Source: a bacterium (GTDB taxonomy: Bacteria; Zhuqueibacterota; Zhuqueibacteria; Residuimicrobiales; Krinioviventaceae). From it: DNA of 64,000 bases. The notes under the pieces are model-generated. The model was given only the letters and a program-made list of their open reading frames with translations. It was not told where the DNA came from and did not search any database. This document shows, in pieces, positions 24,127 through 54,582 of this stretch. Position numbers and translations under genes: made by a program. The stretch covers positions 2,528,001 through 2,592,000 of the forward strand of contig OY843751.1 in NCBI GenBank assembly GCA_963693055.1, read 5' to 3'. How positions within the stretch are numbered: position 1 is the first letter of the stretch; each line of letters opens with the position of its first letter.

Positions 24127-24171
24127 TAGTAGCGGGGGGCGGATTTGAACCGCCGACCTTTGGGTTATGAG
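24127..24171 (-). repeat. att site (duplicated tRNA-fMet 3' part)
   Basis: Identical to 54506-54550; identity stops at the anticodon loop/stem. Confidence 0.93.
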
Positions 24172-24253: not shown

Positions 24254-25321
24254 TTAAATTTTTAATTTATCAAACCTTTTTTTAAGATTTTCACGGGCTA
24301 TTTGGGTATAGTGTTTTGTCATTGAACCGGTTTTGTGACGAAGCATTTCCTGGGCAAGTCTTTCGTTTTTATCCGAAATTTCGTTCTCCATGATTCGCAG
24401 ACCAAATGTATGCCGCAGCATGTGTGCCGGTGATTTGATATGTTCAAGTCCGATTTTGTCAAGTGTGCGCCGGAATGTTCTTGAAACGGCATCTTTATTA
24501 TTGTTGAACAATTTTTTGTCCGGGTTGCCTGTCAGTAATTTTGCCCGGATGATCATGCGTTGTATGATCTGGTGCATGGGGATCAGTTCAATTTCACGGT
24601 TCTTGTTTTTTTCCAGTTTGATATATCCTTCTTTCAACAATATGTTTCTTTCCCTTAACTCGAGACATTCTGATCTGCGTAATCCCGCATACCGTAAAAA
24701 AAGGAATATAATTCTTATATTACTTTTAGGCAAGTTTTTATAAAACTCTTTTTCTTTTTCCCGGGGGAGTATATTCGGTACCGGTTTCGTTGCTGAAAAA
24801 AACTCAAAATCATCAAAAGGATTTATCGGAATATATTTTTTCCGTTTTGCCCAGGAGAAAATATCCCTCAGACATGACAGCTCTTTGTTTGCCCCGCGTC
24901 TTGCGCGTTGTACCTTTAAAAAATCATCCTGGTCAATCTTGGCCAGTCTCTGTTCCAGCAGGGAATTACGAAAGCTTTCCAGGCGTTCATCGGTGACTTT
25001 ATCAATAGTGAGATGAGGGCCCAGGTAATTTATTAACAATTTATATGAATGCAGGTTACGTTTTACGCTGATTTCAATAGACCGCTTTTCTTTATAGATG
25101 GAACCGAAATCCTGTAATGTAGGATAAATTTTCTGGGTAGAGGGAACAGCGCCGTTAATGCGCTGCTGTTCGATTTCCAGTTCTTTCTGCTTAACCCAGA
25201 GTTCAACGGATCTTTTGGGAGTGTTGGGTGGAAAGTACTTTCGATATCTTTTCCCTTGAACGTTAAACTGGACCCGATAGGCTGTACCGCTCTGCAATTC
25301 AATCTCTTCAATATAAGCCAT
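24254..25321 (-). CDS. Tyrosine recombinase / phage integrase
   Basis: GLRRSE, HMLRHTF, LRHK..MTKHY catalytic residues; N-terminal arm-binding-like region; next to att. Confidence 0.92.
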   Translation of the reverse strand: MAYIEEIELQSGTAYRVQFNVQGKRYRKYFPPNTPKRSVELWVKQKELEIEQQRINGAVPSTQKIYPTLQDFGSIYKEKRSIEISVKRNLHSYKLLINYLGPHLTIDKVTDERLESFRNSLLEQRLAKIDQDDFLKVQRARRGANKELSCLRDIFSWAKRKKYIPINPFDDFEFFSATKPVPNILPREKEKEFYKNLPKSNIRIIFLFLRYAGLRRSECLELRERNILLKEGYIKLEKNKNREIELIPMHQIIQRMIIRAKLLTGNPDKKLFNNNKDAVSRTFRRTLDKIGLEHIKSPAHMLRHTFGLRIMENEISDKNERLAQEMLRHKTGSMTKHYTQIARENLKKRFDKLKI

Positions 25322-25448
25322 AATAATCTATCCACAAAAAATTTTTCTCCCGAATAAAACTGAGGAGTGGTAAAATTCCTGTCAATAGATTTTATGATAT
25401 TTACTGCCAAAAAACAACCGGTTTCGTTTGTATTTTATACAAACGAAA

Positions 25449-26953
25449 GTTCAATCCCATCTTAGTTAATAGGTCTTTTCCAATTCTTTAAATCCTCGTG
25501 ACGGGTACTTCTCCTTTCTTACGTTGTCTCAATCCCATCATAGTTAATAGGTCTTTTCCAATCGTTGTTTTACCGGTACTGGAATCTTCACAAAAAACTT
25601 TAGTCTCAATCCCATCATAGTTAATAGGTCTTTTCCAATATTTCCGGCAGTGTTCGCTACACAATTGGAGACAATAAACAGTCTCAATCCCATCATAGTT
25701 AATAGGTCTTTTCCAATAAACAGCCGCGCTAAAGGCAAAGTGGAAAACTCGTTCAGTCTCAATCCCATCTTAGTTAATAGGTCTTTTCCAATAATCTGTG
25801 ACAAGTCAGGATATTGGTGTTGGTATCATCAGTCTCAATCCCATCATAGTTAATAGGTCTTTTCCAATATGAAATATGTTGCTAAGATTGTTGATGAAGG
25901 TAACAGTAATAGTCTCAATCCCATCATAGTCAATAGGTCTTTTCCAATTCAAAGATACGCTTGATGTGTTTATGGATGAAGTACGTCTCAATCCCATCAT
26001 AGTCAATAGGTCTTTTCCAATGGTGGAAATGTAACTCATATTACAATCGACTATATTGCTATCCAAGAGTCTCAATCCCATCATAGTCAATAGGTCTTTT
26101 CCAATTGAAAAAGCGATTTGTGGCGCAGAAACCAACCGCAAAATTGTGTCTCAATCCCATCATAGTCAATAGGTCTTTTCCAATAATTTAACGCTAATAA
26201 TTTGTCTAGCGGGGTTTATTTTGTCTCAATCCCATCATAGTTAATAGGTCTTTTCCAATTTTTTATAGACAGCCTACAAGTGGCTGTGAAGACTAAGTCT
26301 CAATCCCATCATAGTTAATAGGTCTTTTCCAATTGGCAGTAAGCCGGCTTGGGTTACACACTGGAACAAAAGTCTCAATCCCATCATAGTTAATAGGTCT
26401 TTTCCAATCATTACAAATGCAAAGCTTGATGACAAGTTCCAAAAGTATGATGAGTCTCAATCCCATCATAGTTAATAGGTCTTTTCCAATTACAATTTTT
26501 GCAGCCGGTGAAAAACAATATGTGTTCGAGTCTCAATCCCATCATAGTTAATAGGTCTTTTCCAATCTGTTGCAAAAACAACAGCACCCTTTGCACTAAC
26601 GTCACTGTCTCAATCCCATCATAGTTAATAGGTCTTTTCCAATTGGCTTGAGCAACTAGCTCTTATAACAAGGTGAAAGATTTCTAGTCTCAATCCCATC
26701 ATAGTTAATAGGTCTTTTCCAATTGCGCTATGGTGACTTGAAAGGTGTAGACAGTTTTCCTGTAGGTCTCAATCCCATCATAGTTAATAGGTCTTTTCCA
26801 ATCAAAACTGGCAGTGCTGACAAAATCGGAAAAATTGCGTCTCAATCCCATCTTTTCTTATAGGTCTTTTCTGATCAAAGAAAGTGATTAATGTGAAAGG
26901 TAAATTAGTGAGAGTGGTGTCTCAATCCCATCTATTCTAATAGGTCCAAATAC
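25449..26953 (-). CRISPR. CRISPR array 1: 20 repeats / 19 spacers (~36-47 nt); repeat ATTGGAAAAGACCTATTAACTATGATGGGATTGAGAC
   Basis: 37-bp repeat counted directly; orientation from the ATTGAGAC 3' handle and the cas operon direction; terminal repeats degenerate. Confidence 0.97.
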
Positions 26954-27042
26954 ATAAAAAGGCGGATTGTATACCCACCTTTAGTTTAAAATTGAATACA
27001 ATGTTTTTAGATAAAAATTGTCAATGAACAAGAATCTTAAAG
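26954..27042 (-). promoter_or_regulatory. Putative CRISPR leader/promoter
   Basis: AT-rich; TTGACA on the minus strand at 27019-27024 followed by an imperfect -10. Confidence 0.4.
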
Positions 27043-28047
27043 CTATTCTTTCATCAGAAAATTAATTTCCTGGGTTAATTTTTCAATGAATTGATCTTTA
27101 TGAGTCACATCATACTTTACACATCGTTTATGTCGTAGATCGAAAGGTATATCATTTGTATCCTGAGTTAACATGATCACTTTTTTCTTTTGAGCATTGG
27201 CAAGACCTAATTCGTAAAAAACATTGGGATTTTTATTTGTCAAATCCGCAATGATGATCGCTGATTTCAATATATTTTCTTCAACTTTATCCATAATACC
27301 ACCTTGAAATATCTCTTCATCAACTCTTACACATTTTAAATTCATACTTTCAGTAATGTTTCTAATCCACGTATAAATTGTATCAAAGTTGGGGTCAAAT
27401 GGCATTATAACAAAGACAAAGTTTCTGTCAAAATTTATTCCATACGGACTGTATTTTATCAATTGTTCAGTGCCCGGTATTGGACGAGCATTGTTGGGAT
27501 CATATTCAGAAAAAAGGTAAAACGCATCCATAGACTGAATTTTTATGGCTGAACTTACAGCACCTAATGACATTATTTTGGTACCGCCTGTCAAATCAAT
27601 AGCTAAATTTTCAATTTCATATTTGTATTGATTTAGCATTTCATCTTTCCATTTAAAAATTTTACTCTCTACATTATTTTGTTCATCACTACTTATGTTG
27701 ATTATTTCGTACTTTAACAATGGATTCACTTTTTTTATCTCGTTTATGAATAAATCAAAGTGATTATTAAAATGATATATTTTTGATATATTCGAAAATC
27801 CGAAAGTAACAAGTTCTGGCTTCATTATGGCAATAAACAATGCTATGTTTTCTATAGTAAAGCCAAAAGGTACAAAAATGGATTTATATTGTGAATTAGT
27901 AATTCTATTTTTAACCAGTTCATTAGTGTTTTCTTTTAATTGTTCAACACTTAATTTGAAAATTCTTTCAAAATAGAATTCAATATTAAAATTTGATTGT
28001 TCCCAAATTTTGAACAAGTTTTGTAATAATTTTCGTCTATTTACCAT
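27043..28047 (-). CDS. CARF domain fused to a nucleoside 2-deoxyribosyltransferase/TIR-like domain (putative cOA-activated effector)
   Basis: CARF signature IDLTGGTKIMS; C-terminal FVIMPF...IIADLTNKNPNVFYELG...IPFDLRH. Confidence 0.8.
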   Translation of the reverse strand: MVNRRKLLQNLFKIWEQSNFNIEFYFERIFKLSVEQLKENTNELVKNRITNSQYKSIFVPFGFTIENIALFIAIMKPELVTFGFSNISKIYHFNNHFDLFINEIKKVNPLLKYEIINISSDEQNNVESKIFKWKDEMLNQYKYEIENLAIDLTGGTKIMSLGAVSSAIKIQSMDAFYLFSEYDPNNARPIPGTEQLIKYSPYGINFDRNFVFVIMPFDPNFDTIYTWIRNITESMNLKCVRVDEEIFQGGIMDKVEENILKSAIIIADLTNKNPNVFYELGLANAQKKKVIMLTQDTNDIPFDLRHKRCVKYDVTHKDQFIEKLTQEINFLMKE

Positions 28048-28048
28048 T

Positions 28049-28963
28049 TTAATTCCTTATATTTCTTGAAAAGTTGTTCAATATTCTATCTTTAATAATT
28101 ACTGATGGATCTTCTCTGTTTATTTTTTTGATTTTCATTTGTTCCAAATCATTGATATCTAGCAATACTATCAATCGAACCTCATTTCTTATTGAATTGG
28201 AAAAGGCTTTCTGCATTAATCCCCAAATAGAGCTTTGATCTGTTGGTTTAAAGCGACATATTAATAAAGTTAATGGTACTTTTGTGAAAATGGTATCCTG
28301 AAAAAAAAGGGTGTATTTGAAGCATTGCATAAAATCATTTGGTTTCGGTTTTTTATTTTTTACTTCAACAATAATATTGTCAAAATAAAATCCTGTTTTT
28401 TCAATTGCATTGAAATGGTCAAATTTTTCATAAAAGCCATCGAAAACAATACCATTAACATTCTCTTGTTTTCTTTTCAAGTCATGTAAGTACAACATAT
28501 CTATAAATGTCAAAACTAACTTTTCGAATGGTTTTCCAAATTTTTTATCACCAAAATCGGAATTCAATATTTGATTAAATAAATATTCAAGTTGTTCATC
28601 GATTCTCACAAGATATTGTTCATATAAATTTATTAAATCATCAGCACTAGTCCGGATCGGTCCCATTATAGTCTTTGTTGATTTACTATTTGTTGTAAAT
28701 AATTGAATTTTTTCTTCAACATCGAGTAATTGTTTGTTGTGATTATCTATACGTATATTGGGATTATTAAAATAATTGAGATTTTCAAATAAAGGTTTAA
28801 GGATTACTGGTGTCCTTAAATCGTACAACGATGAAAGTTTTTTTAGAGATTTCGAGAGCTTTTCATCGAGTTTATCTTTCAAATCTAAAATCTCTCTTTG
28901 AAAATCTTTTTCTAAATCATAAAGTGGGGCTAAATCGTTCTCTCTGTCGTCAATCATATTCAT
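28049..28963 (-). CDS. Helical N-domain + Mrr-like PD-(D/E)xK nuclease
   Basis: GKPFEKLV...FDG...IIVEVKN...QCFKY pattern. Confidence 0.65.
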   Translation of the reverse strand: MNMIDDRENDLAPLYDLEKDFQREILDLKDKLDEKLSKSLKKLSSLYDLRTPVILKPLFENLNYFNNPNIRIDNHNKQLLDVEEKIQLFTTNSKSTKTIMGPIRTSADDLINLYEQYLVRIDEQLEYLFNQILNSDFGDKKFGKPFEKLVLTFIDMLYLHDLKRKQENVNGIVFDGFYEKFDHFNAIEKTGFYFDNIIVEVKNKKPKPNDFMQCFKYTLFFQDTIFTKVPLTLLICRFKPTDQSSIWGLMQKAFSNSIRNEVRLIVLLDINDLEQMKIKKINREDPSVIIKDRILNNFSRNIRN

Positions 28964-28972
28964 ATTTACTTG

Positions 28973-29908
28973 TTATACTATAAATGATAGACCATATCTA
29001 TGAATAGTGTGTACATCTAAAAATAGATCAGGGGTTACGTTTACAACCTGGCCATTTATGGGTTTAGTAAATATTGATCCCTCTGCCACCATTTTGCATT
29101 CTTTTCTTTTTAATTGAACAGAAGTTGAATATGAATGGAACCAGCCTCTTCTATTCAAGATTTTGAATGAATTCAAATGAACAGCCTCATTATTCTTGGG
29201 TGAACAGAGTGATAAGTTGATGTATGTTCCTTTTGGTTTTTGTTCCAATAATTCTTTCCATCTGGCTTGATTGTCAATTTGAGTCATTTTATAAATAAAG
29301 TGCCCATTACCTACACTTCTATCACCACCCAATCCTTCTTCTGCCAAGAGATTTAAACCAACAGTAAATAATTTAATAAATTCACTATCATTGATCTCGA
29401 CAATGAAAAATAATCCTGCACCGTATTTAAAGGAAAAACCGAATGATTCATATAATTGTGTAACTGTCGATATTCGATCAATTGTAACACGTGGACGAAA
29501 AGTTGGAAACATTATCTCGTTTAGGGGGTCGTTAAATTCTCTGGACAATAACGAATTTTCATCATTAATAATTGTTTTGAAATCGTTCAAATCCAAAAAA
29601 TGAACATCTTTTAATTTGGATTGATAAAAGTTTGATGTTCCCCTTGGTGTGGGCAAATAAAATGTATTGCCCATGTATGGAAAAGCAGAGGTCAAGCGGA
29701 AGGGAGGTGTCTCCGAATTTAATTTTTTTATCAATACTTTAATCCAATTGTTATATCTATTACATTCGGGTAGCCTCATCCATTGGCTCACCAATGCGCT
29801 AAACAGGGTGTCGGAGTGAATGATGCCCTTAAACTCATCATCATCTGATAACAAGCTTGATGACAGGGTTAAAGAACGCTTGAAAGAAAGTTTAATAAGC
29901 CAAAACAC
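28973..29908 (-). CDS. csm4: Type III-A RAMP Csm4 (Cas5 group)
   Basis: IHSDTLFSAL, LTSAFPY..YLPTP, RPRVTIDR, GLGGDRSVGNG; GTG 29908 after GGAGG. Confidence 0.92.
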   Translation of the reverse strand: MFWLIKLSFKRSLTLSSSLLSDDDEFKGIIHSDTLFSALVSQWMRLPECNRYNNWIKVLIKKLNSETPPFRLTSAFPYMGNTFYLPTPRGTSNFYQSKLKDVHFLDLNDFKTIINDENSLLSREFNDPLNEIMFPTFRPRVTIDRISTVTQLYESFGFSFKYGAGLFFIVEINDSEFIKLFTVGLNLLAEEGLGGDRSVGNGHFIYKMTQIDNQARWKELLEQKPKGTYINLSLCSPKNNEAVHLNSFKILNRRGWFHSYSTSVQLKRKECKMVAEGSIFTKPINGQVVNVTPDLFLDVHTIHRYGLSFIV

Positions 29909-30785
29909 TGCTGCTTGCCTCCTTGAGAAAATTGATGATTTCATCAATATAGCTGCGCGCTTGTTTGATATCAAAGGATTCACTTTGTAATTCTGTTGAA
30001 TTTTTTTCATCATCCCCGGTGTAATAATAATCGAGTGAACGGGCAAAAAAACTGGAAAAATTAAATTTAATTTTTCCGTATCCACGGGATGAATACCCAC
30101 CTAAAGCTTCATCTTCAATAATACTCATAGCGGCGAGTATATTTTGAAGATCTTTTTTGACTGTTTCAGCGTTAAATCTAATGTCCTTGTTTTCTTTTGA
30201 AATAATTTCTACAGCATAGATCATTTCAAAATTGAAAATACTGTCAGGCAAGACCCTTTCTACGCGACGTGGATTTGCAGACATATCCTTACGATCAATA
30301 CCGGTTTCGGTTTTTACTTCTGTAAATTCTGTTTGTTGTGTAATAATACTTGAATCCAACAAACAATCTCGAACTAATAGAGCAGAAGGCATATTTTCAG
30401 CTTTGGGTTTTTTTACCAGTTTTGATCTATCATCTCCACTCGATCCAAAAATCCTGCATACATCGCAGGTAATAGCAAGGTCGAAATCTTCACAACAGTG
30501 TATGTTTACTTGGTTGCGAAATGTCCCAATGTTACGGTTGTTTTCCAATTTTTCAATTTTCCCATTAACACTACGTGTTCCAACTTTCTCTACAGTACTA
30601 CGCAATTTACCCTTTAGTGAACTACCCGGTATGTAAGGCAAATTACTTGCGCTATCCCTGATAATTGGTAAATCCACACCGCCAATTTGCATAGATTCAT
30701 TTGAACCACCGATATGTAAGCCTGTTTTTATGACGATATTTCCTTGAAAGTATATTTTACCCAATAACAATCTTTTTTGTGTCAT
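29892..30785 (-). CDS. csm3: Type III-A RAMP Csm3 (Cas7 group)
   Basis: TGLHIGG, GGVDLPIIRD (catalytic D), PYIPGSSLKGKLR, CDVCRIFG, LGGYSSRGYG. Confidence 0.95.
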   Translation of the reverse strand: MTQKRLLLGKIYFQGNIVIKTGLHIGGSNESMQIGGVDLPIIRDSASNLPYIPGSSLKGKLRSTVEKVGTRSVNGKIEKLENNRNIGTFRNQVNIHCCEDFDLAITCDVCRIFGSSGDDRSKLVKKPKAENMPSALLVRDCLLDSSIITQQTEFTEVKTETGIDRKDMSANPRRVERVLPDSIFNFEMIYAVEIISKENKDIRFNAETVKKDLQNILAAMSIIEDEALGGYSSRGYGKIKFNFSSFFARSLDYYYTGDDEKNSTELQSESFDIKQARSYIDEIINFLKEASSSVLAY

Positions 30786-30806: not shown

Positions 30807-31322
30807 TTAATCCCTACCACCATGAAATTTGTGATATGCTACTACAGATTCGACGAATTTGCACAACATTTCATAATCCTCTATAGTATATATAAAATCA
30901 AAAAGTGGATTAATTACTTCAAAAAATGGTGTTACTTCTTTATTCTGTCTGGCCCTTGCGTTTGCAAGTTGTGGTTTAAGTAGAAAAATTTCTGGTTTGA
31001 TATTCCTTTCGAATAATTCTTGTGAATTTTCTTTTAATTTTACAGCTATAGTCCGTGCCTTGATATTTATCATGCTTTCATAAAAGCGCCTTAATTGAGC
31101 AGATTTTAGCCTAATGTCAGGGCTGGCGAGAATTTTTCCTAAAGCATAGCTACAAACCACTAACTTCTCGCCAGTTAAGATTTGTGCTAATGAAACTGCG
31201 CTTTCATTTTTTCCTATAATTTTATCAAGAATATTTCTTGCCTTGTGAAGGTTCCATTCCCTTGATAATCTCTCTTCAATAGGTTCATAATTCATTATGA
31301 TTCCCTCCTGATTTCGTAACAT
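30807..31322 (-). CDS. csm2: Type III-A small subunit Csm2 (Cas11)
   Basis: SAQLRRFY, LLKPQLA, FVESVVAYHKFHGG. Confidence 0.93.
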   Translation of the reverse strand: MLRNQEGIIMNYEPIEERLSREWNLHKARNILDKIIGKNESAVSLAQILTGEKLVVCSYALGKILASPDIRLKSAQLRRFYESMINIKARTIAVKLKENSQELFERNIKPEIFLLKPQLANARARQNKEVTPFFEVINPLFDFIYTIEDYEMLCKFVESVVAYHKFHGGRD

Positions 31323-33636
31323 AAATACACCATGTCAATGGAATATGCATGGATGCAAATTTTTCCAGATCATATATATGAAAATAATTTAAAGACCTTT
31401 CGTTCAAGTCTTTGTTTTGTCTCAACTTTTCTGACATTTTTGTCAATAGCCAAATTATCTGTGGGAGGTATAGCATCCCCTCATTATACCAGGTTTGTAA
31501 TAATTTTAATGCAACCTGAAAAAAGTGTCGGGGTATGCGTGCATTATTCAAATCTAATAAAAGCTGTAGAGGCTCAACGACAAAGTTTTGTATTTCATTG
31601 GTGAATGATTTGGATGTTGAATTGTATTTGTTACTTTTTAAGGCAAGTTCTAACCGTTGGTAATTTTGTACTTGCCTTATCTTAAGCTTTTCGGTTATTG
31701 ATTTTTTCCAATATTGATACTGATCAGTAAAAAAAGGGGTTAAAGATGATTTACGCAAGCAAGAGCCATCTTTGAACAAAGGGCATGTAAAGAATTCCTG
31801 GCGGCATGTCCAGCAAGGCTGCAAATTGTTTTTTGCTTCGAGTAAAGCATTCATAGAGATATGAGCCATTTTATTGATTGGATATTTTGAATGGTGTACA
31901 GTAAAACCTCCACTTATTCCGATATCGATATTATTGCATACGTACTGTTCAAAGGTTTGTGTTATCTCCAGGGAAAGCTGAGCAACATCATTCCAAGCTC
32001 CAATGACAAATAAATCGTCTCCACCAGCATAGATGACTTGTAAATTTTTTTTAGATCCTTCTGGATTTAAAAATGAATAGCTTTTATTGGTTTTACTGCA
32101 TAATGCATTCAGAAATAATTTGAAATAGTAATTCAGATTTCGGGAAAGGTTTGACAGGCTTTCAAAAGTTAAATTATTGCCAAATCCTTTTTGCATGATT
32201 TTTCCCAGGTTGTCAACGTCCATACGCAATCCTGCAACATATTTCACACCTGTTGCAGTTTGAGAAAGCAAATCTATTCCTGCAACACTATCATCTCTAA
32301 GGGAGGCAAGAGCTTCTTCCAGGTACTTTTTATCAGCCAATTCAATTTGAGCTTGAAGAGCAATCTTTTCTTTTTGAATTTCCTTTTTTATTGCATCGGG
32401 CATGTCTTTGATTTTTCTTAAATAAGTTTTACTGTAAACAGGCAGAGTATGCTCAGATAACTCATTTATGATATCAAAAGAGCCTTGATAAATAATGAAT
32501 TTTAGATTACTGTTATCCTCTTTTCCATCACTTAGTTTATAATATTTTTCGTCAATTTGTATTGAATCAGAGCTTTCATTGTCTGTTGCATATATATATT
32601 TGACATTTGGTATCTTGTTGCCTAGTTTTGACAATTTATCACAAAAAGGACATCTTGCTAATCCTGCTTCTTCATCGAGTATGAGGTTTGCCTTTGTATC
32701 GTCTCTGGTACAAATATCACAATGCATAAAATGTGGGTCATTTTTATCTATCCATTCAAACTCGCCTTGTTCAATTAGGCTTTTGAATTTTGCTTGTTTT
32801 TTCTCAAAGATTTTTAATGAAATTTGGTTTAATAACTCATCCAAATTGTTCTCGATTTGAGTTTCCTCACACTCAATAGCATCTATAGACACATATAAAA
32901 TTCCGTTAAATTCATTATATAACCATTTGTTGATTCTGTAATCAATTTCATTAATAAGTTCTTTATAATTTTCAGGTTTACTTGCATAAAAATAAATACT
33001 TCCCCCGCCATTCATAAGCACATTGACTTGGTGAAGATTGAATTTCTCCATAACTGTTTCAATTAAATGCCAAGATAATAATTCAATATAAAATGATCGT
33101 GCCCTTAAATTTTTCAATGCACCGCTGGATGTGATATTATAAATGAAATTTTGTATTCCGGAAAGGTCAACATTGATTAATAAATTTCCATTATGATTAT
33201 GGTGTGTCGCATTGTAATCAATTACAGCTTTAGCGGCTTTGATTTTATATGCATCGTAAATTGAAATATTTTCATTTTGTTGTGCAGGTAGATTCCCTCC
33301 ATACATTTCTAAAAGGAAGAAAAGTTGAGAGCAATTTAATGATTCAAGATATGATTGATCAAATGCCTTTACATTAGTTGCAATGTCCATTATAAATTGC
33401 TGTTTTTCGGTATCAAACATCTGGTCTTGTTTGAGTTGAGGATAATATGGCTCAAATGTTAAACGATATGGAGGTACGTAATAAGGACTGTCTTGATCAT
33501 CTTTAAAACTTACTAGATTAAATATAGATCGCAAATAGTTGGGTGTAGATTGTTCACACCAGCTTTTTATCTCTTCAAGTCCTTGAATAAATGTTGGTTT
33601 TAATATATCATTCAAATCCAAATTAATTACCTCCAT
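31285..33636 (-). CDS. cas10: Cas10/Csm1 lacking the HD nuclease domain, with intact cyclase Palm
   Basis: DLSGIQNFIY, LRARSFY, CDIC/CPFC, MDVDNLG, IYAGGDD; starts close to the post-HD LRSIF motif. Confidence 0.93.
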   Translation of the reverse strand: MEVINLDLNDILKPTFIQGLEEIKSWCEQSTPNYLRSIFNLVSFKDDQDSPYYVPPYRLTFEPYYPQLKQDQMFDTEKQQFIMDIATNVKAFDQSYLESLNCSQLFFLLEMYGGNLPAQQNENISIYDAYKIKAAKAVIDYNATHHNHNGNLLINVDLSGIQNFIYNITSSGALKNLRARSFYIELLSWHLIETVMEKFNLHQVNVLMNGGGSIYFYASKPENYKELINEIDYRINKWLYNEFNGILYVSIDAIECEETQIENNLDELLNQISLKIFEKKQAKFKSLIEQGEFEWIDKNDPHFMHCDICTRDDTKANLILDEEAGLARCPFCDKLSKLGNKIPNVKYIYATDNESSDSIQIDEKYYKLSDGKEDNSNLKFIIYQGSFDIINELSEHTLPVYSKTYLRKIKDMPDAIKKEIQKEKIALQAQIELADKKYLEEALASLRDDSVAGIDLLSQTATGVKYVAGLRMDVDNLGKIMQKGFGNNLTFESLSNLSRNLNYYFKLFLNALCSKTNKSYSFLNPEGSKKNLQVIYAGGDDLFVIGAWNDVAQLSLEITQTFEQYVCNNIDIGISGGFTVHHSKYPINKMAHISMNALLEAKNNLQPCWTCRQEFFTCPLFKDGSCLRKSSLTPFFTDQYQYWKKSITEKLKIRQVQNYQRLELALKSNKYNSTSKSFTNEIQNFVVEPLQLLLDLNNARIPRHFFQVALKLLQTWYNEGMLYLPQIIWLLTKMSEKLRQNKDLNERSLNYFHIYDLEKFASMHIPLTWCIYVTKSGGNHNEL

Positions 33637-33640
33637 ATAG

Positions 33641-34627
33641 TCATTCTGTAATAGTTACTCTTATTTTCCCCAACCCAAAACTTGTCCCTTTGCCGATGTG
33701 GAGGACCTGGCTCTGCAGCAGAAGGGGAGTGAATCCATTTATGTTGCCGGCAAGAAGGATATCGCCGATAAAGCCGCCGATCTCCATTTTTGTGTTTTGC
33801 CGGGAGCTGTACCGGTGCCAGTCCTGCCATTTCAGATGCGGGTCCATAATTGCCACTTCATTTGCCTGGACAAGATAGGGGTGGAAGTGCCAGTCGATTT
33901 CATTTTCCGGAGCGTAGAAATGCGCGAGCTCTAAAAGGCGCCGGAGCATTTTAAACACCAACAGTCGGAAAGAGAAATCCATTATATATTGGTCTTCGTA
34001 TTTTAATCGGGTAGGCGTGAGAAACCGGACTTGAACCTGGTCGTGCTCCGAATCCTCATAGTGCGGATGAGTGGGGATTGCCTGGGCGCAGAGGGATTCA
34101 GTTTCTCCTTTGTAGATCAGTGTTTCGGTAAAAGTGTTTTCTGCCAGGGAATGTTGTTCCGGATTTATCCAATAAACATTATGGAGTTGGAACGGCAATC
34201 GCTTTGATGAAAGTCCCCGTTTGGCCATGAGACTGATGGAGTAAATAATGTATGGATAAAGCGCTCCAATATTACCGAGGAGCGTCAGGGTAAAGCTGAA
34301 CGTATCGCCCTGGGCATACTCGGTTTTTTGATCAAAAGCGTCTATGATGTATGGCCGGGGAGAGGTTGGTAATTTGCTTAAAAAGGGCGGAGGGGTTCCC
34401 TCGACATAAGTCTCAAAAATTTTTGTGTAGGTACACTGGCTCCGGAACAGGCAGGATTGACAGGATTCCTGTTTTTTCTGAATGCAGACAGTCCGTTTTA
34501 ACGCACTGCCAAATGCTCCCCTCAGCATGGATCCCTTAATCCTGGGCAGTGTGCATACCTGTTCGGCCTGAAGAACGAATTTCAGTTTCAAATAGGGAAT
34601 AATAGGAAGACAGTAATCCACGGTCAT
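33641..34627 (-). CDS. cas6: Cas6 crRNA-processing endoribonuclease (Cys-cluster type)
   Basis: GSMLRGAFG, CI..CQSC....C, FLTPTRL, HIGKGTSFGLG glycine-rich loop. Confidence 0.93.
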   Translation of the reverse strand: MTVDYCLPIIPYLKLKFVLQAEQVCTLPRIKGSMLRGAFGSALKRTVCIQKKQESCQSCLFRSQCTYTKIFETYVEGTPPPFLSKLPTSPRPYIIDAFDQKTEYAQGDTFSFTLTLLGNIGALYPYIIYSISLMAKRGLSSKRLPFQLHNVYWINPEQHSLAENTFTETLIYKGETESLCAQAIPTHPHYEDSEHDQVQVRFLTPTRLKYEDQYIMDFSFRLLVFKMLRRLLELAHFYAPENEIDWHFHPYLVQANEVAIMDPHLKWQDWHRYSSRQNTKMEIGGFIGDILLAGNINGFTPLLLQSQVLHIGKGTSFGLGKIRVTITE

Positions 34628-34975: not shown

Positions 34976-35008
34976 CAATCCCATCGTATTGATTAGGTCT
35001 ATTTACAG
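34976..35008 (-). repeat. Solitary CRISPR repeat (type B, lacking the last 4 nt)
   Basis: caatcccatcgtattgattaggtctatttacag is identical to array-2 repeats. Confidence 0.9.
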
Positions 35009-35772
35009 AGAAATGCATGGTTCTTTACTATGAGGTAGAGAAGGGTAGCGGCTTTTTCTTCAAAGCTGGGGTACAAATCCCTGTCTCCCAATGACTGACG
35101 GATTTGAGTGATAGCACTCTTGAACCCGTCACCCCGTTCATGTCCAAATACAGAGGAGTTAAAATCGCTTCGCATTTGATCAATAACGGCCATATAGTCT
35201 TTGTATGCCGGGTAGACAACGGATTTTTCCGTTTTACCTTTTTTATCCAGGGATTCATGATCATAATCGTCTAAAAGTTTCAGACCCTCTGCATACAAAT
35301 TTAACCAGTCGTAATCCTTGTTCGATGCTTTTTGCTCTATAGCCCGACTTATAATATGAATTCCATCCTTAAGATGTTGAACTTCTTGTTGTTTCTGTGC
35401 CAGTCTTTTTTCATTGATGGTATACCCTTGTACTAACAATTCTCTCAATCTTTTAGTTGCCCATTGACGGAATTGAGTACCTCGTTGTGACTTTACTCGA
35501 TAACCAACTGATATTATGACATCAAGATTGTAAAAAGCCACAGGTTTATCTGAATTTGCAATATGCATTTTTTGCATATTGCTTTTTTTTTCAAGTTCAT
35601 TTTCTTGAAATATATTATTCAGATGGCGGGAAATCACTGATTGATCTCGTTGAAACAACTGTGTTAATTGCTCCTGATTGAGCCAAACTGTATCCTCATT
35701 AAAACGAACTTCAACAGCAGTTTCGTTATCATTTGTTGTATAGATTTCAATTTTGTTTTCAGTATTATCCAT
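34999..35772 (-). pseudogene. RhuM-family protein fused to Fic/Doc, truncated at the Fic motif
   Basis: YNLDVIISVGYRVKSQRGTQFRQWAT (RhuM); LYPSFEEKAATLLYLIVKNHAF then CRISPR repeat. Confidence 0.88.
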
Positions 35773-35865
35773 TATGTGTCTTGTAAGATTAGAGTCGTGA
35801 TGAATGAGCCGTACATACAAGGTTATTTAACAAACTATTTGGAAACATTCAAGGGTATTTTGAAA

Positions 35866-37296
35866 CAGGGTACCCCCGATTTTTTTATTCGAGGGCCAAA
35901 AATAATTGATTTTTGTCACCGGCATGATTATTACACTTTAATTTTCTGAGCTTTATATTGGGTAAAATGATCCTTAATGCCTTTGCCAGTTTATAATAAA
36001 CAAACCCAATAAACTCGTTTAATTTCCTTCTATACACCAACGGAGCTTGAGATTGATCTAAAATATGTAAACAAATATTATCCAAATGACAATAGATAAA
36101 ACTCATGACATTCCAAAACAGGGCATTAAAATTTTTTAGCGCAACATACCTTTTAAGGCAAATGTCTTCAAGATGATAATCATTTTTTATTTGACGATGT
36201 ACCTCTTCAATTTTCCACCGGTAACCATAGCCTTCCATGGTAATCTCTATGGCCTCACGTTCAGTCTCTGCCGGTATAAAGCTTAAAAACCAGCTTTTGC
36301 CTTTGCCAGGTTCAGTGACTGAAATCAGCCATAATCCGGTGTTCATTGGGCCATCCCCATACTGCTTTGGCAGATATACCTTACGGGCACCGCATTGAAA
36401 ACATCGCTTTATCAGCCTGTTCCGGCGTTTTTTCTGCACGGTAATTTCAGTACTGGGACGGATTTTTTCGGCATATTTCTTTAAATTCTTCTTTACTCCT
36501 TGAACAAATATATCCCGGTACCCGGTTTGCCGTATTATAAAGTGTTGTTTTTGCTTAATCCATTTGTTCATCAGTTTGCTACGATCACCTCCGCGATCAT
36601 AAACAACTATCTGTTCTCCATGAATATGTTCTCGAATCGTGTCCACGGATTCGAGGATTTTCTTGTTCTCTGAAATACCTTTGCCTTCTTCCTGATCCGT
36701 CGCCCAAAGCGTACTCACCAGCGGCATGATGGATGTACCGGTTTTATCAACTCCAATGATATTCAGTTGCCAGTATCCATTCCCTAGTTCTTTGGTACTA
36801 CCATCATAAACACGATCAAGCCCTTCCATCTTTTCCGCATAAGGCTTGATTATATCACTCATATCTGCTATCAAGTATTTCGAATCCGAAAACCTTCTTT
36901 TGTTTATTTTCAGATGACTAATGGTTAATTCTCTGTCAAATCCTGGGCGGCCCAAGTGGCTAGACATTCGTTCTGTTGTCTTTTTTAGGCTCGTCTCTTC
37001 CTTTAGGGTTGATGCGATTTTATTTAAATGTACATGCCCGGAGCAAAGTATCCCATAATGCATGTCTCTGATAAATTTATAGTCCGGTCGGTTGAATTCT
37101 GCTTGATATTTCGCTGTCACTTGATTAAGTTTTACTTGGACTCGTTTTGTGATGTCCATGGGTTGCCTCCTATATTATGGTCTGTCAACTATAATGAGGC
37201 AACCTTTTTTTATTTTTACAAGCTTTTTTTGCTTCTATCTCCATTATTTTTTATTACTTACAGTAATATGATTTGTGATTTTTCGGGGGTGTCCTG
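35866..37296 (-). mobile_element. IS4-superfamily insertion sequence
   Basis: IRs cagggtacccccga / tcgggggtgtcctg; 10-bp TSD tattttgaaa at 35856-35865 and 37297-37306; ggttgcctc...gaggcaacc hairpin covers the RBS. Confidence 0.92.
35885..37159 (-). CDS. DDE transposase (IS4 superfamily)
   Basis: IADMSDI, YDRGGD, YGYRWKIEEVHRQIK. Confidence 0.92.
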   Translation of the reverse strand: MDITKRVQVKLNQVTAKYQAEFNRPDYKFIRDMHYGILCSGHVHLNKIASTLKEETSLKKTTERMSSHLGRPGFDRELTISHLKINKRRFSDSKYLIADMSDIIKPYAEKMEGLDRVYDGSTKELGNGYWQLNIIGVDKTGTSIMPLVSTLWATDQEEGKGISENKKILESVDTIREHIHGEQIVVYDRGGDRSKLMNKWIKQKQHFIIRQTGYRDIFVQGVKKNLKKYAEKIRPSTEITVQKKRRNRLIKRCFQCGARKVYLPKQYGDGPMNTGLWLISVTEPGKGKSWFLSFIPAETEREAIEITMEGYGYRWKIEEVHRQIKNDYHLEDICLKRYVALKNFNALFWNVMSFIYCHLDNICLHILDQSQAPLVYRRKLNEFIGFVYYKLAKALRIILPNIKLRKLKCNNHAGDKNQLFLALE

Positions 37297-37332: not shown

Positions 37333-37674
37333 AATCCCATCATAGTTAATAGGTCTTTCCAGTCCATTATCATGGATAAAATGTCAGGTCGTTCAAAAGG
37401 TTTTGGGTCTCAATCCCATCATAGTTACCAGGTCTTTTCCAATCTTGTTTGAGGGGCTCCTGATCTTGCAAAAACTTATGGTCTCAATCCCATCGTATTG
37501 ATTAGGTCTATTTACAGTAGGCTATTTCGAACAAGACGGCCAGACGCGAGCACAATTGTTGTCTCAATCCCATCGTATTGATTAGGTCTATTTACAGCTA
37601 TTAGATAAAGAGGGTAGTATGAAAAAGAAAGCTGGAATAGTCTCAATCCCATCGTATTGATTAGGTCATTCCAC
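37333..37674 (-). CRISPR. CRISPR array 2: 5 repeats / 4 spacers, hybrid of repeat A and repeat B (CTGTAAATAGACCTAATCAATACGATGGGATTGAGAC)
   Basis: Repeats at 37333 (partial A), 37407 (A), 37481, 37561, 37640 (B). Confidence 0.92.
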
Positions 37675-37861
37675 GTGAGACGTGAAACGTAAGACGGTAA
37701 ACGATCTTTTGACCTTGCGAAAATGTCAAAGAACGGGGGAGTTGTCAGTCATCGGTTATCAGTTTTCAGAACCACCCGGGGGTTCGTTGTATTCCATATT
37801 TCTTGAGCTGAGCGTCAGTCGGTCCCTGAGTAGACCGCCGCCAGGCGGACGTACCGAAGGG

Positions 37862-37894
37862 CAATCCCATCGTATTGATTAGGTCTATTTACAG
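37862..37894 (-). repeat. Second solitary type-B CRISPR repeat
   Basis: Identical 33-mer to 34976-35008. Confidence 0.9.
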
Positions 37895-38262
37895 TCAATC
37901 AGATTGGATATTACATCATAACCGCATTTGTGTCATTTGTTCTCACCAACCTGGGATGGATACTATTCAAAAAGGACAAGACAGAACCGGTTGAAAAAGA
38001 CCATCTTGACCATCCTTGTCAAAAAATTCTGATATTGGAACAGGATTTTAAGAACCACAAAGATGTGGTCAAGAACCGGATTGATTTGAATGAACGTCGG
38101 TTGAACGCACACGCGAAAGACCTGGATGTATTGCGGGAAACCATCGTGAGACAGGAACAGAACAATAACCATCTGAACGAGAAAGTAGATGAAATCAAGG
38201 CCGAGATTAGTAAAATAACAGATTTTTTATACAGTGGTAAATGGAAATCGGTTAAGTCATGA
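37895..38262 (+). CDS. Phage-like TM + coiled-coil protein (holin/hemolysin-like), probably 5'-truncated by the repeat
   Basis: Open frame NQIGYYIITAFVSFVLTNLGWILF starts right at the repeat junction; coiled-coil tail. Confidence 0.5.
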
Positions 38263-43944: not shown

Positions 43945-44598
43945 ATGGAAATTGCTAAAATTATTCTAGAATACTTAAAGGTTACTATCTGGCCTATCAC
44001 AACCTTTATATTATTACTAATTTTCAAAAAAGATATTTGTAAAATTTTAATGCGATTGAAAAAAGCAGATTTACCTGGCGGTATATCTCTTGAAACATTT
44101 CCAGAACAAATTGAAGAAGCAAAATCTTTATTAATAGAAGTTAAGGAAGAAAAGAAAGAAGAAGATAAATTAAGAAAACAAATATATGCTACAATTCCAT
44201 TAACAGAAGCAAACGCAAAAATGATAACATTAGGTCTTGCACCATCACCTTCAGGTCTTGAACTTGATAAATACAAACAATTAGCTGAACGAGATCCAAA
44301 CTTAGCACTTGCAGGACTCAGGATGGAACTTGAAATAATGTTGAAAAATTTGGCAAAAGGCTATAAAATCAATATTAACAAAAGGGCTTCAACGACGAAC
44401 ATTACTAAGGAATTGAAAGAAAAAAATGCTATAACTAAAAATCAATCTGATTTAATACACACAATTATAAATTTAGCAAATGCCGCTGTTCATGGTGTTA
44501 AGGTTACAAAGTCTCAGGCCAATGATATCCTACAAATATCAGAAACATTAAGAGATCAATATATTAATTGGCTGAGTTGGGGCTTTACTGATAAATAA
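43945..44598 (+). CDS. Cassette 2: N-terminal TM + HEPN/DUF4145-like domain
   Basis: WPITTFILLLIFK TM; LRMELE...LANAAVHG (RxxxxH-like, R replaced). Confidence 0.6.
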   Translation: MEIAKIILEYLKVTIWPITTFILLLIFKKDICKILMRLKKADLPGGISLETFPEQIEEAKSLLIEVKEEKKEEDKLRKQIYATIPLTEANAKMITLGLAPSPSGLELDKYKQLAERDPNLALAGLRMELEIMLKNLAKGYKININKRASTTNITKELKEKNAITKNQSDLIHTIINLANAAVHGVKVTKSQANDILQISETLRDQYINWLSWGFTDK

Positions 44599-44758
44599 TA
44601 AAGCTAACAATTGTTTCCAGCGGATCGCTAAAGCGATCCACTAAATTCCACGTGGACGTGGAATTCGAAATACAACATTCGGGACGCTTGCTCTTGGCTC
44701 GCGACCGCTGAAACAGACGTTATAAGTAATCTCGAGCCTCGCGCAAAGGAGTATAAAT

Positions 44759-45318
44759 ATGAAATGTTCCGTATATATAGCAACAAGTGTAGATGGGTAA
44801 TTGCAACACCTGATGGAGGTGTTGATTGGCTGCATACAGCAGGTAATTTAGAAGCTGACATGGGCGATGAAGATATGGGGTTTCGTGATTTTATGGACTC
44901 CTTAGACTGCATGATAATGGGGCGTAAGTGCATGGAAATGATTTCCAATATAAACTTAACCCCAGAACAATGGATTTATGGTGACATGCCTATTTTTGTA
45001 CTCAGCAATACAGTTAAAGAGGCTCCTGAAAATCTTCGAGGGAAAGTTGAAATGTATTCCGGCAATATTAAAGAATTAACTTTAAAGCTCGAGAAGAACG
45101 GATATACACACGCATACATTGATGGTGGTTCCACTATTACATCGTTTCTAAATCATGGCCTAATTAGCGAAATGATTATAACCAAAGCCCCTGTACTTTT
45201 AGGCGAAGGTCTTCCCCTTTTTGGAAAAATCAACAAAAAGCTAAAGTTAGAAAATACTGAAGTGAAATCGTTCCCAAATTACTGGTATCAACTTAAGTGT
45301 AGCGTAAATTACTTATAA
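44759..45318 (+). pseudogene. Cassette 3: DHFR-like / RibD C-terminal family protein with a frameshift
   Basis: MKCSVYIATSVDG then TAA; a single missing base restores DG(Y)IATPDGGVDWL...MGRK...DGG...PVLLGEGLPLF. Confidence 0.85.
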
Positions 45319-45403
45319 CAAATGCATGCACCGGAGCTTCCCGCCGCTGTCGCTCTAGGAACCCCGGTGATGCTGGTGTTAGGCTTTAACAGGGAGGTGG
45401 TTT

Positions 45404-45877
45404 TTGATCCAGATCTACAAGAATCTTTATGTTGGTGAAGATTTTGAGTGTTTTGATGATAAAGAGAAGTGGGTCACTGTCCATGCTTGTAAATCTCCAT
45501 GTCATCAGCGAATCATAGGCTATAGAGGTAGTCTTCCATCGAACCATCCACACTATTTAGTTTATGAAAATGATAGAAACTTGTATTTAAATATTATTGA
45601 TCCCCCCATCCCACTCTTCAAACTAGAACTTTTTACAACTTTTCTTAAGTTCGGAGCGAAGCATTATAAAGAGGAAAAATTAATTTTCATTCATTGTAAT
45701 CGAGGTGAGTCTCGAGCACCATCGTTAGCACTCCTCTTTTTAGCAAAACATTTAAAGGCTATTGACAACAATTCATACCAAACTGCGATGAGTGAATTTG
45801 CTGCAATTTACCCCCAGTATAATCCAGGAAATGGGATAAGAAAATTTCTGACTGAAAACTGGACAATAATAAAATGA
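45404..45877 (+). CDS. Cassette 4a: dual-specificity/tyrosine phosphatase
   Basis: IHCNRGESRA (HCxxGxSR); NLYVG; YNP. Confidence 0.85.
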   Translation: MIQIYKNLYVGEDFECFDDKEKWVTVHACKSPCHQRIIGYRGSLPSNHPHYLVYENDRNLYLNIIDPPIPLFKLELFTTFLKFGAKHYKEEKLIFIHCNRGESRAPSLALLFLAKHLKAIDNNSYQTAMSEFAAIYPQYNPGNGIRKFLTENWTIIK

Positions 45878-46596
45878 TAATGATTTTTTTTGATGAAACT
45901 GGTGATTCAAAATTTAAAGAATATTTTGGCATTTGTTGCGTCCGGATTAATTCCGCATTCTATACACAAGTTAAAAGAGAATTTCAAAGTATCCTTGAAT
46001 CAAACCAATGGGACACAAATATTGAGTTCAAAGGATCGCATTTATTTTCAGCAAATAGTGGCGATACTAATATTACTATCGATCAGAGGATCAATATAGC
46101 TGAATCCTTAATAGGTTTAAATACTGCGAATAAAAATGCACGGATTTGCTTCTCCTATTTTAGCAAAGTATCAACCGACCATAGAAGTGATTATTTAGAA
46201 TATTTGCCTATATTATTGGATAAGGCCCTTCCAAAAGTAAATCATAAAAACGGGAAGGATATTGTTACAATCCATTGCGATAATAGAAGCGATATTTCAA
46301 TCAATGAGGTCCGAGAGAGCATTATGCCGATCATATCATCAAATGAATATACATTATTTGAAGATGTCTCGATGCCGAATTCTCGATTTGAAACTGTAGG
46401 CTTATTATACGCTGATTTAATCGGATATTTGATCGCCAGAGTTGAAACAATTAGTTCAGATGCGGAATTGTTCGAAAATATTCCACAGGATCAATGGGAA
46501 AACAATGGTAAGGTTAAAAAATTGAAATCATCAACAAAGCTATTGCAGCAGATAAAAAATATAAATTTATACAAAGTTAAAGGTAGTCAAGGCTAA
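45874..46596 (+). CDS. Cassette 4b: DUF3800-like protein
   Basis: IFFDETG, EFKG, CD, LLYADL motifs; ATGA overlap with 4a. Confidence 0.65.
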   Translation: MIMIFFDETGDSKFKEYFGICCVRINSAFYTQVKREFQSILESNQWDTNIEFKGSHLFSANSGDTNITIDQRINIAESLIGLNTANKNARICFSYFSKVSTDHRSDYLEYLPILLDKALPKVNHKNGKDIVTIHCDNRSDISINEVRESIMPIISSNEYTLFEDVSMPNSRFETVGLLYADLIGYLIARVETISSDAELFENIPQDQWENNGKVKKLKSSTKLLQQIKNINLYKVKGSQG

Positions 46597-46750
46597 CAAG
46601 CTGCTGCACGCGACGGCTGGCGCCGTCGCTTTTGACAGCTTCGCTGTCAAAAGCTTTGGTAGATTTCGTGGCTTATGCTGATTAGCTTCCAGCCGCCGCG
46701 CGTGAGCAAAGTGTTAGCTGCTCAAGGCATTTCCAAAACAAGGAGATTTA

Positions 46751-48421
46751 ATGAAATTACCAGAACCACAAACAAGAACATTTTCTAGTCTAATCTCAGA
46801 AATAGAGAAAGGCCAGATTAAAATCCCGCAGTTCCAAAGAGACTTTGTGTGGACAATTCAAAAGTCTGCTGGGTTAATTGATAGTGTTATTAAAGGTTAT
46901 CCGATAGGCACTTTTATTTTTTGGAAAACGAAGGACAGGCTGCGCTCTGTTAGGGATATAGGAATTCAAGTTTTGCCGGATCCTGAACTGGGTGAATCTG
47001 TAGATTATGTACTTGATGGACAGCAACGATTAACAAGTTTGTATGCTTGCTTGAAAGGGGTAAGCATAAAACGAGAAGATAGCAAGAAGATTGATGACTT
47101 TTCAAAAATATATATAAATTTAGAATCTGATGAAGATGAAAAAATAGTTACAACGGAAGTTGATGAAGAAAAAATCGATCACCATATAAGTATTCTTGAT
47201 TTGCTTACGGGAGATTTCACCGTTTTAGCATCTTATCCTGCTGAATACCATGAAAAATTAAAGCTCTACAAGAATAGGATTGAGAGCTACCAATATTCGA
47301 TTATTCAAGTTAAAGAAGCACCCATTGATATTGCAACAGAAATATTTACAAGGATTAACGTTGGAGGAAAACCCCTTTCCTTATTCGAAATAATGGTTGC
47401 AAAAACATTTGATTACGAAAAGGATTTTGATTTATCTGAGAAGTTCGAACAACTAATTGATAATCTTAAGCCTCACGATTACGAAACAATATCTGATGCT
47501 ACAGTATTGCAAGTTGTTTCAATGATTATTTCTAAAGAATGCAAGCGTCAAGTAATATTGAAGATAGATAAAACTAAGTTTATTGATACCTGGGATAGGG
47601 CTGTTGACTCAATTGAAAGAACGGTTGAATACTTTAAAAGTTACTACAGAATCCCTGTTTCTCAGCTACTTCCATACAATGCATTAATAGTTCCTTTTTC
47701 ATATTTCTTTTTTCATCATAAAGATAAACCTACAGGGGATAAACAAAAATATCTACAAGACTTTTTTTGGCGATGTTCGTTATCAGGTCGTTATTCATCT
47801 TCTGTAGAGAGTAAATTAGCTCAGGATATAAAGAGAATTGAAAATATTCTTGAAGATAAATTGCCGATTTATGATTGGTCAATTGATTCCTCTAAGGATT
47901 TTATTATTGATAATGGCTGGTTTAGTGCGGGAAGGAGCTATATTAAGGCAATTTTATGCATATACGCATATCATCAGCCGAAATCATTTATTGACAACTC
48001 TCTGGTGAACATTAGTAATTACTGGCTAAAACAGGCTAACAGTAAGAACTATCACCACTTTTTTCCTAGGGCGTATCTAAAAAAGCAAGGAGAGGAGGAA
48101 CACTATATTAACCATATATTGAATATCACAATAGTGGATGATTTTTTGAACAAGCGTGAAATAGGTGCAAAAGCACCTTCAAAATACATGAGCCAGTTCA
48201 AAAAGATTAATCCTGAAATAGAGTCCTCAATGAAATCACATCTTATTAATGATTTATATGGTTTTGGTGTTTTGGAGGATGACTATGATTCTTTCTTCGA
48301 AAGTAGAGCAAATTTGCTCAATAAGGAAATAGAAAAACGAATCATAAAGCAAGAAGTTGATAGAAAATCGCAGCCAGATATTCAGGATGATTATGAGGAA
48401 GAACCAACTGTTACAGAATAA
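46751..48421 (+). CDS. Cassette 5: GmrSD-like restriction protein (DUF262 + HNH-like domain)
   Basis: IPQFQRDFVW, LDGQQRLTS, IFTRINVGG; C-terminal HHFFP...N...N. Confidence 0.85.
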   Translation: MKLPEPQTRTFSSLISEIEKGQIKIPQFQRDFVWTIQKSAGLIDSVIKGYPIGTFIFWKTKDRLRSVRDIGIQVLPDPELGESVDYVLDGQQRLTSLYACLKGVSIKREDSKKIDDFSKIYINLESDEDEKIVTTEVDEEKIDHHISILDLLTGDFTVLASYPAEYHEKLKLYKNRIESYQYSIIQVKEAPIDIATEIFTRINVGGKPLSLFEIMVAKTFDYEKDFDLSEKFEQLIDNLKPHDYETISDATVLQVVSMIISKECKRQVILKIDKTKFIDTWDRAVDSIERTVEYFKSYYRIPVSQLLPYNALIVPFSYFFFHHKDKPTGDKQKYLQDFFWRCSLSGRYSSSVESKLAQDIKRIENILEDKLPIYDWSIDSSKDFIIDNGWFSAGRSYIKAILCIYAYHQPKSFIDNSLVNISNYWLKQANSKNYHHFFPRAYLKKQGEEEHYINHILNITIVDDFLNKREIGAKAPSKYMSQFKKINPEIESSMKSHLINDLYGFGVLEDDYDSFFESRANLLNKEIEKRIIKQEVDRKSQPDIQDDYEEEPTVTE

Positions 48422-54481: not shown

Positions 54482-54508
54482 GTTCTTGTTTTTTAAGGCT
54501 TTAAGTAG

Positions 54509-54582
<74 letters not shown>

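Follow-up and report, generated by a model that had tools for sequence, protein, structure and literature searches.

Where a type III CRISPR–Cas operon ends in a gene that joins a CARF sensor to a domain of the TIR/nucleoside 2-deoxyribosyltransferase (NDT) type, the question arises of which reaction the sensor would control. Such a gene is located at 27043..28047 (minus strand) of the 64,000-nucleotide stretch of bacterial DNA analysed here, referred to as the window. Its ORF encodes a protein of 334 aa, the effector, which comprises a CARF sensor similar to those of Csm6 from T. thermophilus (TtCsm6) and Cam1 (residues 1–203; 27439..28047, minus strand), recognised by fold and residue matches, and a TIR/NDT-fold catalytic domain, the C-domain (residues 206–334; 27046..27432, minus strand), recognised by fold and alignment. 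The translated ORF contains the motifs IDLTGGTKIMS (residues 150–160), FVIMPF (212–217), ADLTNKNPNVFYELG (267–281) and IPFDL (300–304). All of the motifs quoted in the original prediction are present, and the gene is indeed the last one of the operon, in which the order is cas6-cas10-csm2-csm3-csm4-orf304-effector.

In Pfam searches with the full protein, CARF_Card1 matched residues 113–179 with 27.2 bits, above the cut-off of 24.6, and the C-terminal third matched the NDT (PF05014, 23.4 bits) and CAP12-TIR (PF10137, 15.5 bits) models under their cut-offs of 28.8 and 24.7, respectively; the isolated C-domain reached 19.0 bits with PF10137, again under 24.7. The earlier proposal of a fusion between a CARF domain and an NDT/TIR-fold N-glycosidase was borne out, since both domains were confirmed by the predicted fold (full-length model, pLDDT 89.8) and the CARF Lys motif and the N-x-x-x-ELG motif are both retained in 55 of the 55 top homologues; the pairing of motifs is therefore not due to chance.

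The cas operon and its genomic setting

On the minus strand, cas6 (33641..34627) is followed by cas10/csm1 (31285..33636), csm2 (30807..31322), csm3 (29892..30785), csm4 (28973..30100, the longest ORF; translation probably begins close to where csm3 ends), orf304 (28049..28963) and the effector gene. The product of orf304 has a helical N-terminus and, as seen in an alignment, PD-(D/E)XK-like nuclease motifs. The canonical type III-A genes csm2, csm3 and csm4 share the operon with cas10, in agreement with the type III setting claimed previously, and Cas10 carries the sequence YAGGDD in its translation, so that the GGDD motif had also been correctly noted as intact.

In the canonical type III-A order, csm5 usually occupies the slot that is taken here by orf304, and csm6 that of the effector gene. 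The complete host genome contains one Cas10 and one RAMP-family match; a Csm5 model, which found targets in 5 of 14 controls, matched only csm3 in this genome. In all 17 loci in which csm4 is visible, the next genes are orf304, or what is left of it, and then the effector gene, and none of the 17 has csm5 between csm4 and the effector gene. The N-terminal HD region is missing and GGDD is kept in all ten full Cas10 proteins compared (that of the window and nine others), with an unrelated Cas10 from locus L101 as the HD-positive control; defence should therefore rest on signalling. The operon is a conserved, csm5-less and HD-less variant of type III-A in which a nuclease-like gene takes the place of csm5.

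A CRISPR array in which a 37-nt repeat occurs about 20 times (25448..26955) lies just downstream of the effector gene, and a second array with related repeats, short and partly degenerate, is located at 37333..37895. Between cas6 and the second array are a RhuM/Fic-like gene and a DDE transposase gene (34999–37159), and a single lone copy of the repeat occurs at 34976. A third array, whose repeat begins in the same way, is found elsewhere in the host genome at 2.798 Mb (G000:C1 2797977–2799030). Comparison of the spacers with the rest of the host genome yielded no long match, the best being 17–18 nt. The only cas1 gene of the genome is found 1 Mb away, in a separate locus that is type I-like (G000:C1 1497044–1504940).

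The cas cassette sits within a 30.4-kb prophage-like remnant (24127–54555), which comprises an integrase gene (24254–25321), a large phage protein fragment (48807–50360), a tail-fibre-like gene (50459–53041), and two copies of a 50-nt direct repeat, at 24127 and 54506, which correspond to one end of the tRNA-Met gene (54508–54582). Defence-like cargo in the same island (43945–48421) encodes a DUF4145 protein, a DUF3800-like protein and a GmrSD_N (DUF262) protein. The GC content is 27–28% for the effector gene and orf304, 32% for cas10 and 47% for cas6, against a genome value of 39%.

The CARF sensor

In the predicted model, residues 7–203 superpose on cA4-bound TtCsm6 (Z 18.4, rmsd 3.1, 177 aligned residues) and on Cam1 (Z 15.9, rmsd 2.8, 152 aligned residues), the N-terminal 200 residues of the effector corresponding to residues 1–190 of TtCsm6. 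The N-terminal part therefore has the CARF fold that the original prediction staked itself on, together with the DLTxGxK motif expected of a type III CARF effector. In an alignment of 51 full-length members, from which four partial sequences were excluded, residues T153, G155, K157, Y177 and E194 are kept in 50–51 of the 51 and align with T133, G135, K137, Y161 and E179 of TtCsm6. K157 and Y177 are invariant (51/51), as is G62, which was equated with TtCsm6 G58 by motif position. In the available text on TtCsm6, K137 is assigned to cA4 binding and Y161 to cA4 cleavage (PMC10897365). The cA4-binding residues of TtCsm6 and Cam1 are thus retained, and the gene has the operon position of csm6; unlike TtCsm6, which is organised as CARF-HTH-HEPN, the effector bears a TIR-like domain instead of the HTH-HEPN RNase. 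Type III CRISPR would thereby gain an effector family in which the Csm6-type HEPN RNase is exchanged for a TIR-like enzyme.

Because the fold is TtCsm6-like and T153, G155, K157, Y177 and E194 are conserved, the CARF domain is likely to bind cA4, and from the conservation of K157, Y177 and E194 we infer that the effector is bound and activated by cyclic oligoadenylate (cOA). The size of the ligand and any ring-nuclease activity are uncertain, since T59, N164, R172 and R173 of TtCsm6 have no conserved counterpart in the family. The search of the complete host genome with three models produced no convincing CARF protein besides the effector. Given this and the retention of K157 and Y177, it is proposed that the CARF domain may slowly degrade cA4 itself, and a self-limiting ring-nuclease activity is possible.

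Such an activity could also be the main one. The effector would then be a regulator: it could act on cOA as a ring nuclease or as a sink, or, under cOA control, restrain or release the orf304 product, and its TIR-like domain would be weak or non-toxic. The CARF domain of TtCsm6 is described as resembling Crn1 ring nucleases in the accessible part of the source (PMC10897365), the full-length profile of the effector weakly matches Sso2081-type ring nucleases, and the gene is tightly linked to that of a nuclease. Nevertheless, no part of the effector is more conserved than the catalytic pocket of its C-domain, E279 being present in 51 of the 51 full-length members, and the effector gene persists where the nuclease gene has been lost, so that a mainly regulatory role appears very unlikely.

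The catalytic domain and its predicted substrate

The C-domain was aligned in 95 sequences, namely that of the window and those of 94 out of 103 loci, after three rows had been removed as truncated and six as redundant or partial. The model built from this alignment (pLDDT 92.8) has a flavodoxin-like fold with the catalytic Glu on helix C. The original prediction had suggested comparing it with NDT, TIR and Cat1 structures; the best match was MilB (Z 15.1, rmsd 2.6, 126 aligned residues), tied with the TIR-STING protein Cap12 (Z 14.6, rmsd 1.9, 115 aligned residues), and followed by animal TIR domains (Z 13–14.5), NDTs (Z 11–14) and Cat1 (Z 12.3). At the level of sequence profiles the domain is nearer to DNPH1-like proteins (hhalign 97%, E 1e-10) than to the Cap12 TIR (91%, E 1e-7). 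Pfam NDT is matched by 80 of the 95 members and CAP12-TIR by 10, and the best PDB sequence matches are DNPH1/Rcl (E 3.5e-6).

Near-invariant residues of the C-domain are F212, R241, D243, N273, N275, E279 (codon 27211–27213) and D303; E279 and N275 occur in 95 of 95 members and D303 in 94. F212, N275, E279 and D303 align with F6, N80, E84 and D110 of the TIR-STING NADase, the numbering of which includes an inferred 8-residue offset. The assignment of the YELG glutamate as the catalytic Glu of NDT/TIR-fold glycosidases was upheld by these matches. In the consulted part of the TIR-STING study, the NADase site is composed of F6, N80, E84 and D110, the last being supplied by the dimer mate (PMC9402430). 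R78 and S10 of TIR-STING are unmatched, N273 and P216 being found at these positions; the near-invariant R241 may stand in for them.

Two of the catalytic sites of DNPH1 are altered. DNPH1 is reported to use Y24, D80 and E104, with D80 protonating the leaving base (PMC10603095), and in MilB the replacement of Y24 by F17 is said to admit ribose (PMC10603095; PMC4081090). F212, placed at the DNPH1 Y24/MilB F17/TIR-STING F6 site from structural range offsets, is a Phe in 93 of the 95 members, so that the deoxyribose-selecting Tyr is lacking. According to the sections of the sources available, Phe at the Tyr site accompanies ribose substrates (PMC10603095; PMC11204291) and TIR NADases usually carry Phe or Ala there (PMC11204291). 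At the site of the general-acid Asp (DNPH1 D80/MilB D78), Ile or Val is present in 94 of the 95 members, compared with Asp in all 29 DNPH1-like controls; TeTIR and classical TIR NADases are likewise described, in the portion consulted, as devoid of this Asp (10.64898/2026.09.21.753143).

A cOA-activated ribonucleotide N-glycosidase of the MilB/DNPH1 type, which would split the bases off NMPs or NTPs and starve the replicating phage, could account for MilB as the top structural match, for the DNPH1/Rcl sequence matches, for a Phe at the ribose-selecting site like F17 of MilB, and for N273, which occupies the position of the phosphate-binding Ser. The departure of an uncharged base requires its protonation, as stated in the accessible text of PMC10603095, and both the replacement of the acid Asp and the lack, in the C-domain, of the G/S-I-x-G-G loop seen in the DNPH1-like controls speak against this reaction, which is considered unlikely. 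Compared with the MilB/DNPH1/NDT group (PF05014), the effector shares the fold (Z 14–15), the catalytic Glu in YELG and the best sequence-profile match, but differs by the missing general-acid Asp, deoxyribose-selecting Tyr and phosphate loop and by its fusion to a sensor. With the Cap12 TIR-STING/Pycsar TIR family (PF10137) it has in common the fold, the equivalents of the four active-site residues and a cyclic nucleotide sensor as activator, whereas that sensor is CARF rather than STING, the Pfam score is under the cut-off, R78 and S10 are not kept, and the C-domain forms a separate clade in a quick tree.

Since Phe replaces the NDT Tyr, the general-acid Asp is missing, and F6, N80, E84 and D110 have counterparts, the active-site pattern favours NAD+, as in a TIR-like NADase, over deoxynucleotides and a true NDT. 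The effector is probably a cA4-activated NADase that would cause abortive infection. Upon recognition of target RNA, Cas10 would make cOA, and a dimer of the CARF domains would bind cA4, as do TtCsm6 and Cam1. Closure of this dimer, with or without filaments, could move D303 into the E279 pocket of the partner subunit, like D110 of TIR-STING, whereupon the nicotinamide–ribose bond of NAD+ would be cleaved, NAD+ drained, and the infected cell arrested. That no other CARF protein was found in this complete genome, which has a single Cas10, was counted in favour of this mechanism. Counted against it were the sequence profile, nearer to DNPH1-like proteins than to Cap12, the unmatched R78 and S10, and the example of MilB, which also has Phe at the first site yet cleaves a ribonucleotide, not NAD+; moreover, csm5 was not found, and efficient cOA output of a csm5-less Csm complex is an assumption.

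The same C-domain is found at either end of many unrelated proteins, and relatives of this FVxMPF...NPNVxYELG family were present in at least 599 of 602 candidate genome stretches. The host genome itself encodes a further protein that has this TIR/NDT-like domain at the N-terminus and no CARF (G000:C1 3341200–3342042). Among the non-CARF relatives, 49 of 50 scanned (50 of 80 genome loci) match the PADLOC model PDLC00733 'Effector, TIR', which, to judge by its placement among NucC and cyclase models, appears to be a CBASS effector model. In a quick tree a single gain (support 95) accounts for the 18 CARF-fused C-domains, three non-CARF rows falling within the group; because one gain suffices, the fusion may have arisen once. 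The effector provides a ligand-controlled handle on this very widespread, apparently uncharacterised family, which falls between TIR NADases and MilB/DNPH1 glycosidases. Members of the NDT-like 'DrHyd' superfamily in conflict systems are predicted NADases or ADPR cyclases in the available part of PMC9503650; in a DrHyd profile comparison the PF20309 model, of 36 positions only, did not match the C-domain. DUF4062/TeTIR (Swarozyc) proteins share the NDT-like fold, the Phe, the lack of Asp and the catalytic Glu, and are described as proven NADases in the accessible sections of two sources (10.64898/2026.05.01.722283; 10.64898/2026.09.21.753143), but they show no detectable profile similarity to the C-domain (hhalign 2–4%) and are activated by phage portal or NTPase modules. 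On the basis of the hhalign values, DUF4062 was rejected as the parent family.

Relation to Cat1, family distribution and the neighbouring gene

Cat1 is reported as a type III NADase of 258 aa with an N-terminal TIR and a C-terminal CARF domain (PMC12162218, consulted in part). It resembles the effector in combining CARF with a TIR-fold domain that has a catalytic Glu, in its occurrence in type III loci, and in the predicted outcome. The effector, however, has 334 aa and the reverse order, N-CARF/C-TIR-like, and the Cat1 TIR superposes on the C-domain only at rank 20 (Z 12.3, rmsd 2.0, 112 aligned residues, 13% identity). The PDB chains of Cat1 gave no sequence match to the effector or its domains, and three effector-family motifs and two accessions were absent from the three Cat1 supplements consulted, including 568 homologue rows. 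The reversed domain order, the 13% TIR identity and the lack of a PDB sequence match led us to reject the suggestion that the effector could be a Cat1 relative, which the original prediction had left standing as a reason to abandon its claim. As the active site points to NAD+, the outcome would probably be the same as that of Cat1 and TIR-SAVED, and the effector probably reaches the same end as Cat1 though unrelated to it. If it is an NADase, CARF sensing has recruited NAD+ depletion at least twice, in opposite domain orders, and the CARF dimer axis would offer a way to activate a TIR-like site without the filaments that Cat1 needs.

No CARF-NDT/DrHyd fusion came up in searches of the full-text literature, in which most subscription papers are missing, nor does one appear in the accessible parts of PMC11229360, PMC9704534, 10.64898/2026.05.01.722283 and 10.64898/2026.10.19.760177. 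In the 2025 classification (PMC12669027) it is likewise absent from Supplementary Table 2 and from section 8; the external data files of that paper, or the 2020 CARF classification, could list it. CARF-TIR effectors are mentioned as detected in some loci in the available text of PMC11229360, citing its ref. 63. The family of CARF-TIR-like effectors is apparently undescribed so far.

A protein search, which covered proteins of 183–585 aa only, returned 55 top matches, mostly full length and with 37–52% identity, followed by a sharp fall to matches to the C-domain only; about 50 full-length relatives were found. A metagenome scan gave 23 effector loci, which fall into 16 clusters when grouped at 90% identity and into 14 when grouped at 70%; the cas10 gene belonging to the operon can be seen in 14 of the 23, the remaining loci ending too early. 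Full-length relatives were found in none of the 166 other genomes of the phylum, eight of which matched the C-domain only, and none of 81 matching plasmid records covered 80% of the query. The distribution of the family is sporadic. The CARF-TIR-like protein represents a real, conserved and apparently uncharacterised type III effector family.

The stop codon of orf304 lies 1 nt before the start of the effector gene, and orf304 is intact immediately upstream of the effector gene in 16 of the 19 informative loci, the other four of the 23 ending too early to reveal the upstream gene. In each of the remaining three loci the effector is intact but orf304 is not: L082 has a shortened version of 102 aa, L087 a split one, and L094 none at all. 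The invariant residues of the orf304 product are D175, E200-x-K202 and Q213-xxx-Y217, which we take to fit the PD-(D/E)XK nuclease motifs. It belongs to a closed family with 32 representatives at E<=1e-30; some of 18 more distant matches that were scanned also contain Mrr_cat, Macro, proteasome, KTSC or AAA domains. Among 167 genomes of the phylum, orf304 occurs only in that of the window, and comparison of its profile with the PDB gave only coiled-coil noise. The orf304 product may be a partner nuclease of the HD-less complex, a relay target or an independent passenger.

In a two-tier relay, the cOA-activated domain would make an ADPR-derived signal, such as a cyclic ADPR isomer or a base-exchange product, that arms orf304 as a sensor-less nuclease. 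The close linkage of the two genes fits this scheme, as does the smallness of the closed orf304 family and its lack of a CARF or SAVED match, and TIR/DrHyd domains are reported to make signals in other systems (PMC9503650; PMC11204291, both consulted in part). The orf304 product has, however, no detected SLOG or Macro domain, the known ADPR sensors, and its loss or disruption in three of 19 loci next to an intact effector gene weakens an obligate relay, so that a second signal for orf304 is the weaker option and quite improbable. The corresponding minimal type III-A pathway without Cas10 HD and Csm5, leading from cOA through the CARF-TIR-like enzyme and a new ADPR-derived messenger to a DNase in the csm5 slot, is held to be similarly doubtful; if true, it would amount to a CRISPR-to-Thoeris-style signal relay.

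A pair of CD-NTase and NucC genes (CBASS) is located about 1 kb downstream of the effector gene in one lineage (L086 8002–9501, also L085 and L090). The identification of orf304 as NucC was rejected, as it has no similarity to the NucC of L086. In some loci cas6 and cas10 are separated by AAA-ATPase genes (L104 404–3842, L095 3–623), one of which has a PD-(D/E)XK tail, and in another (L093 10879–12592) a reverse-transcriptase fragment precedes cas1-cas2 and the array.
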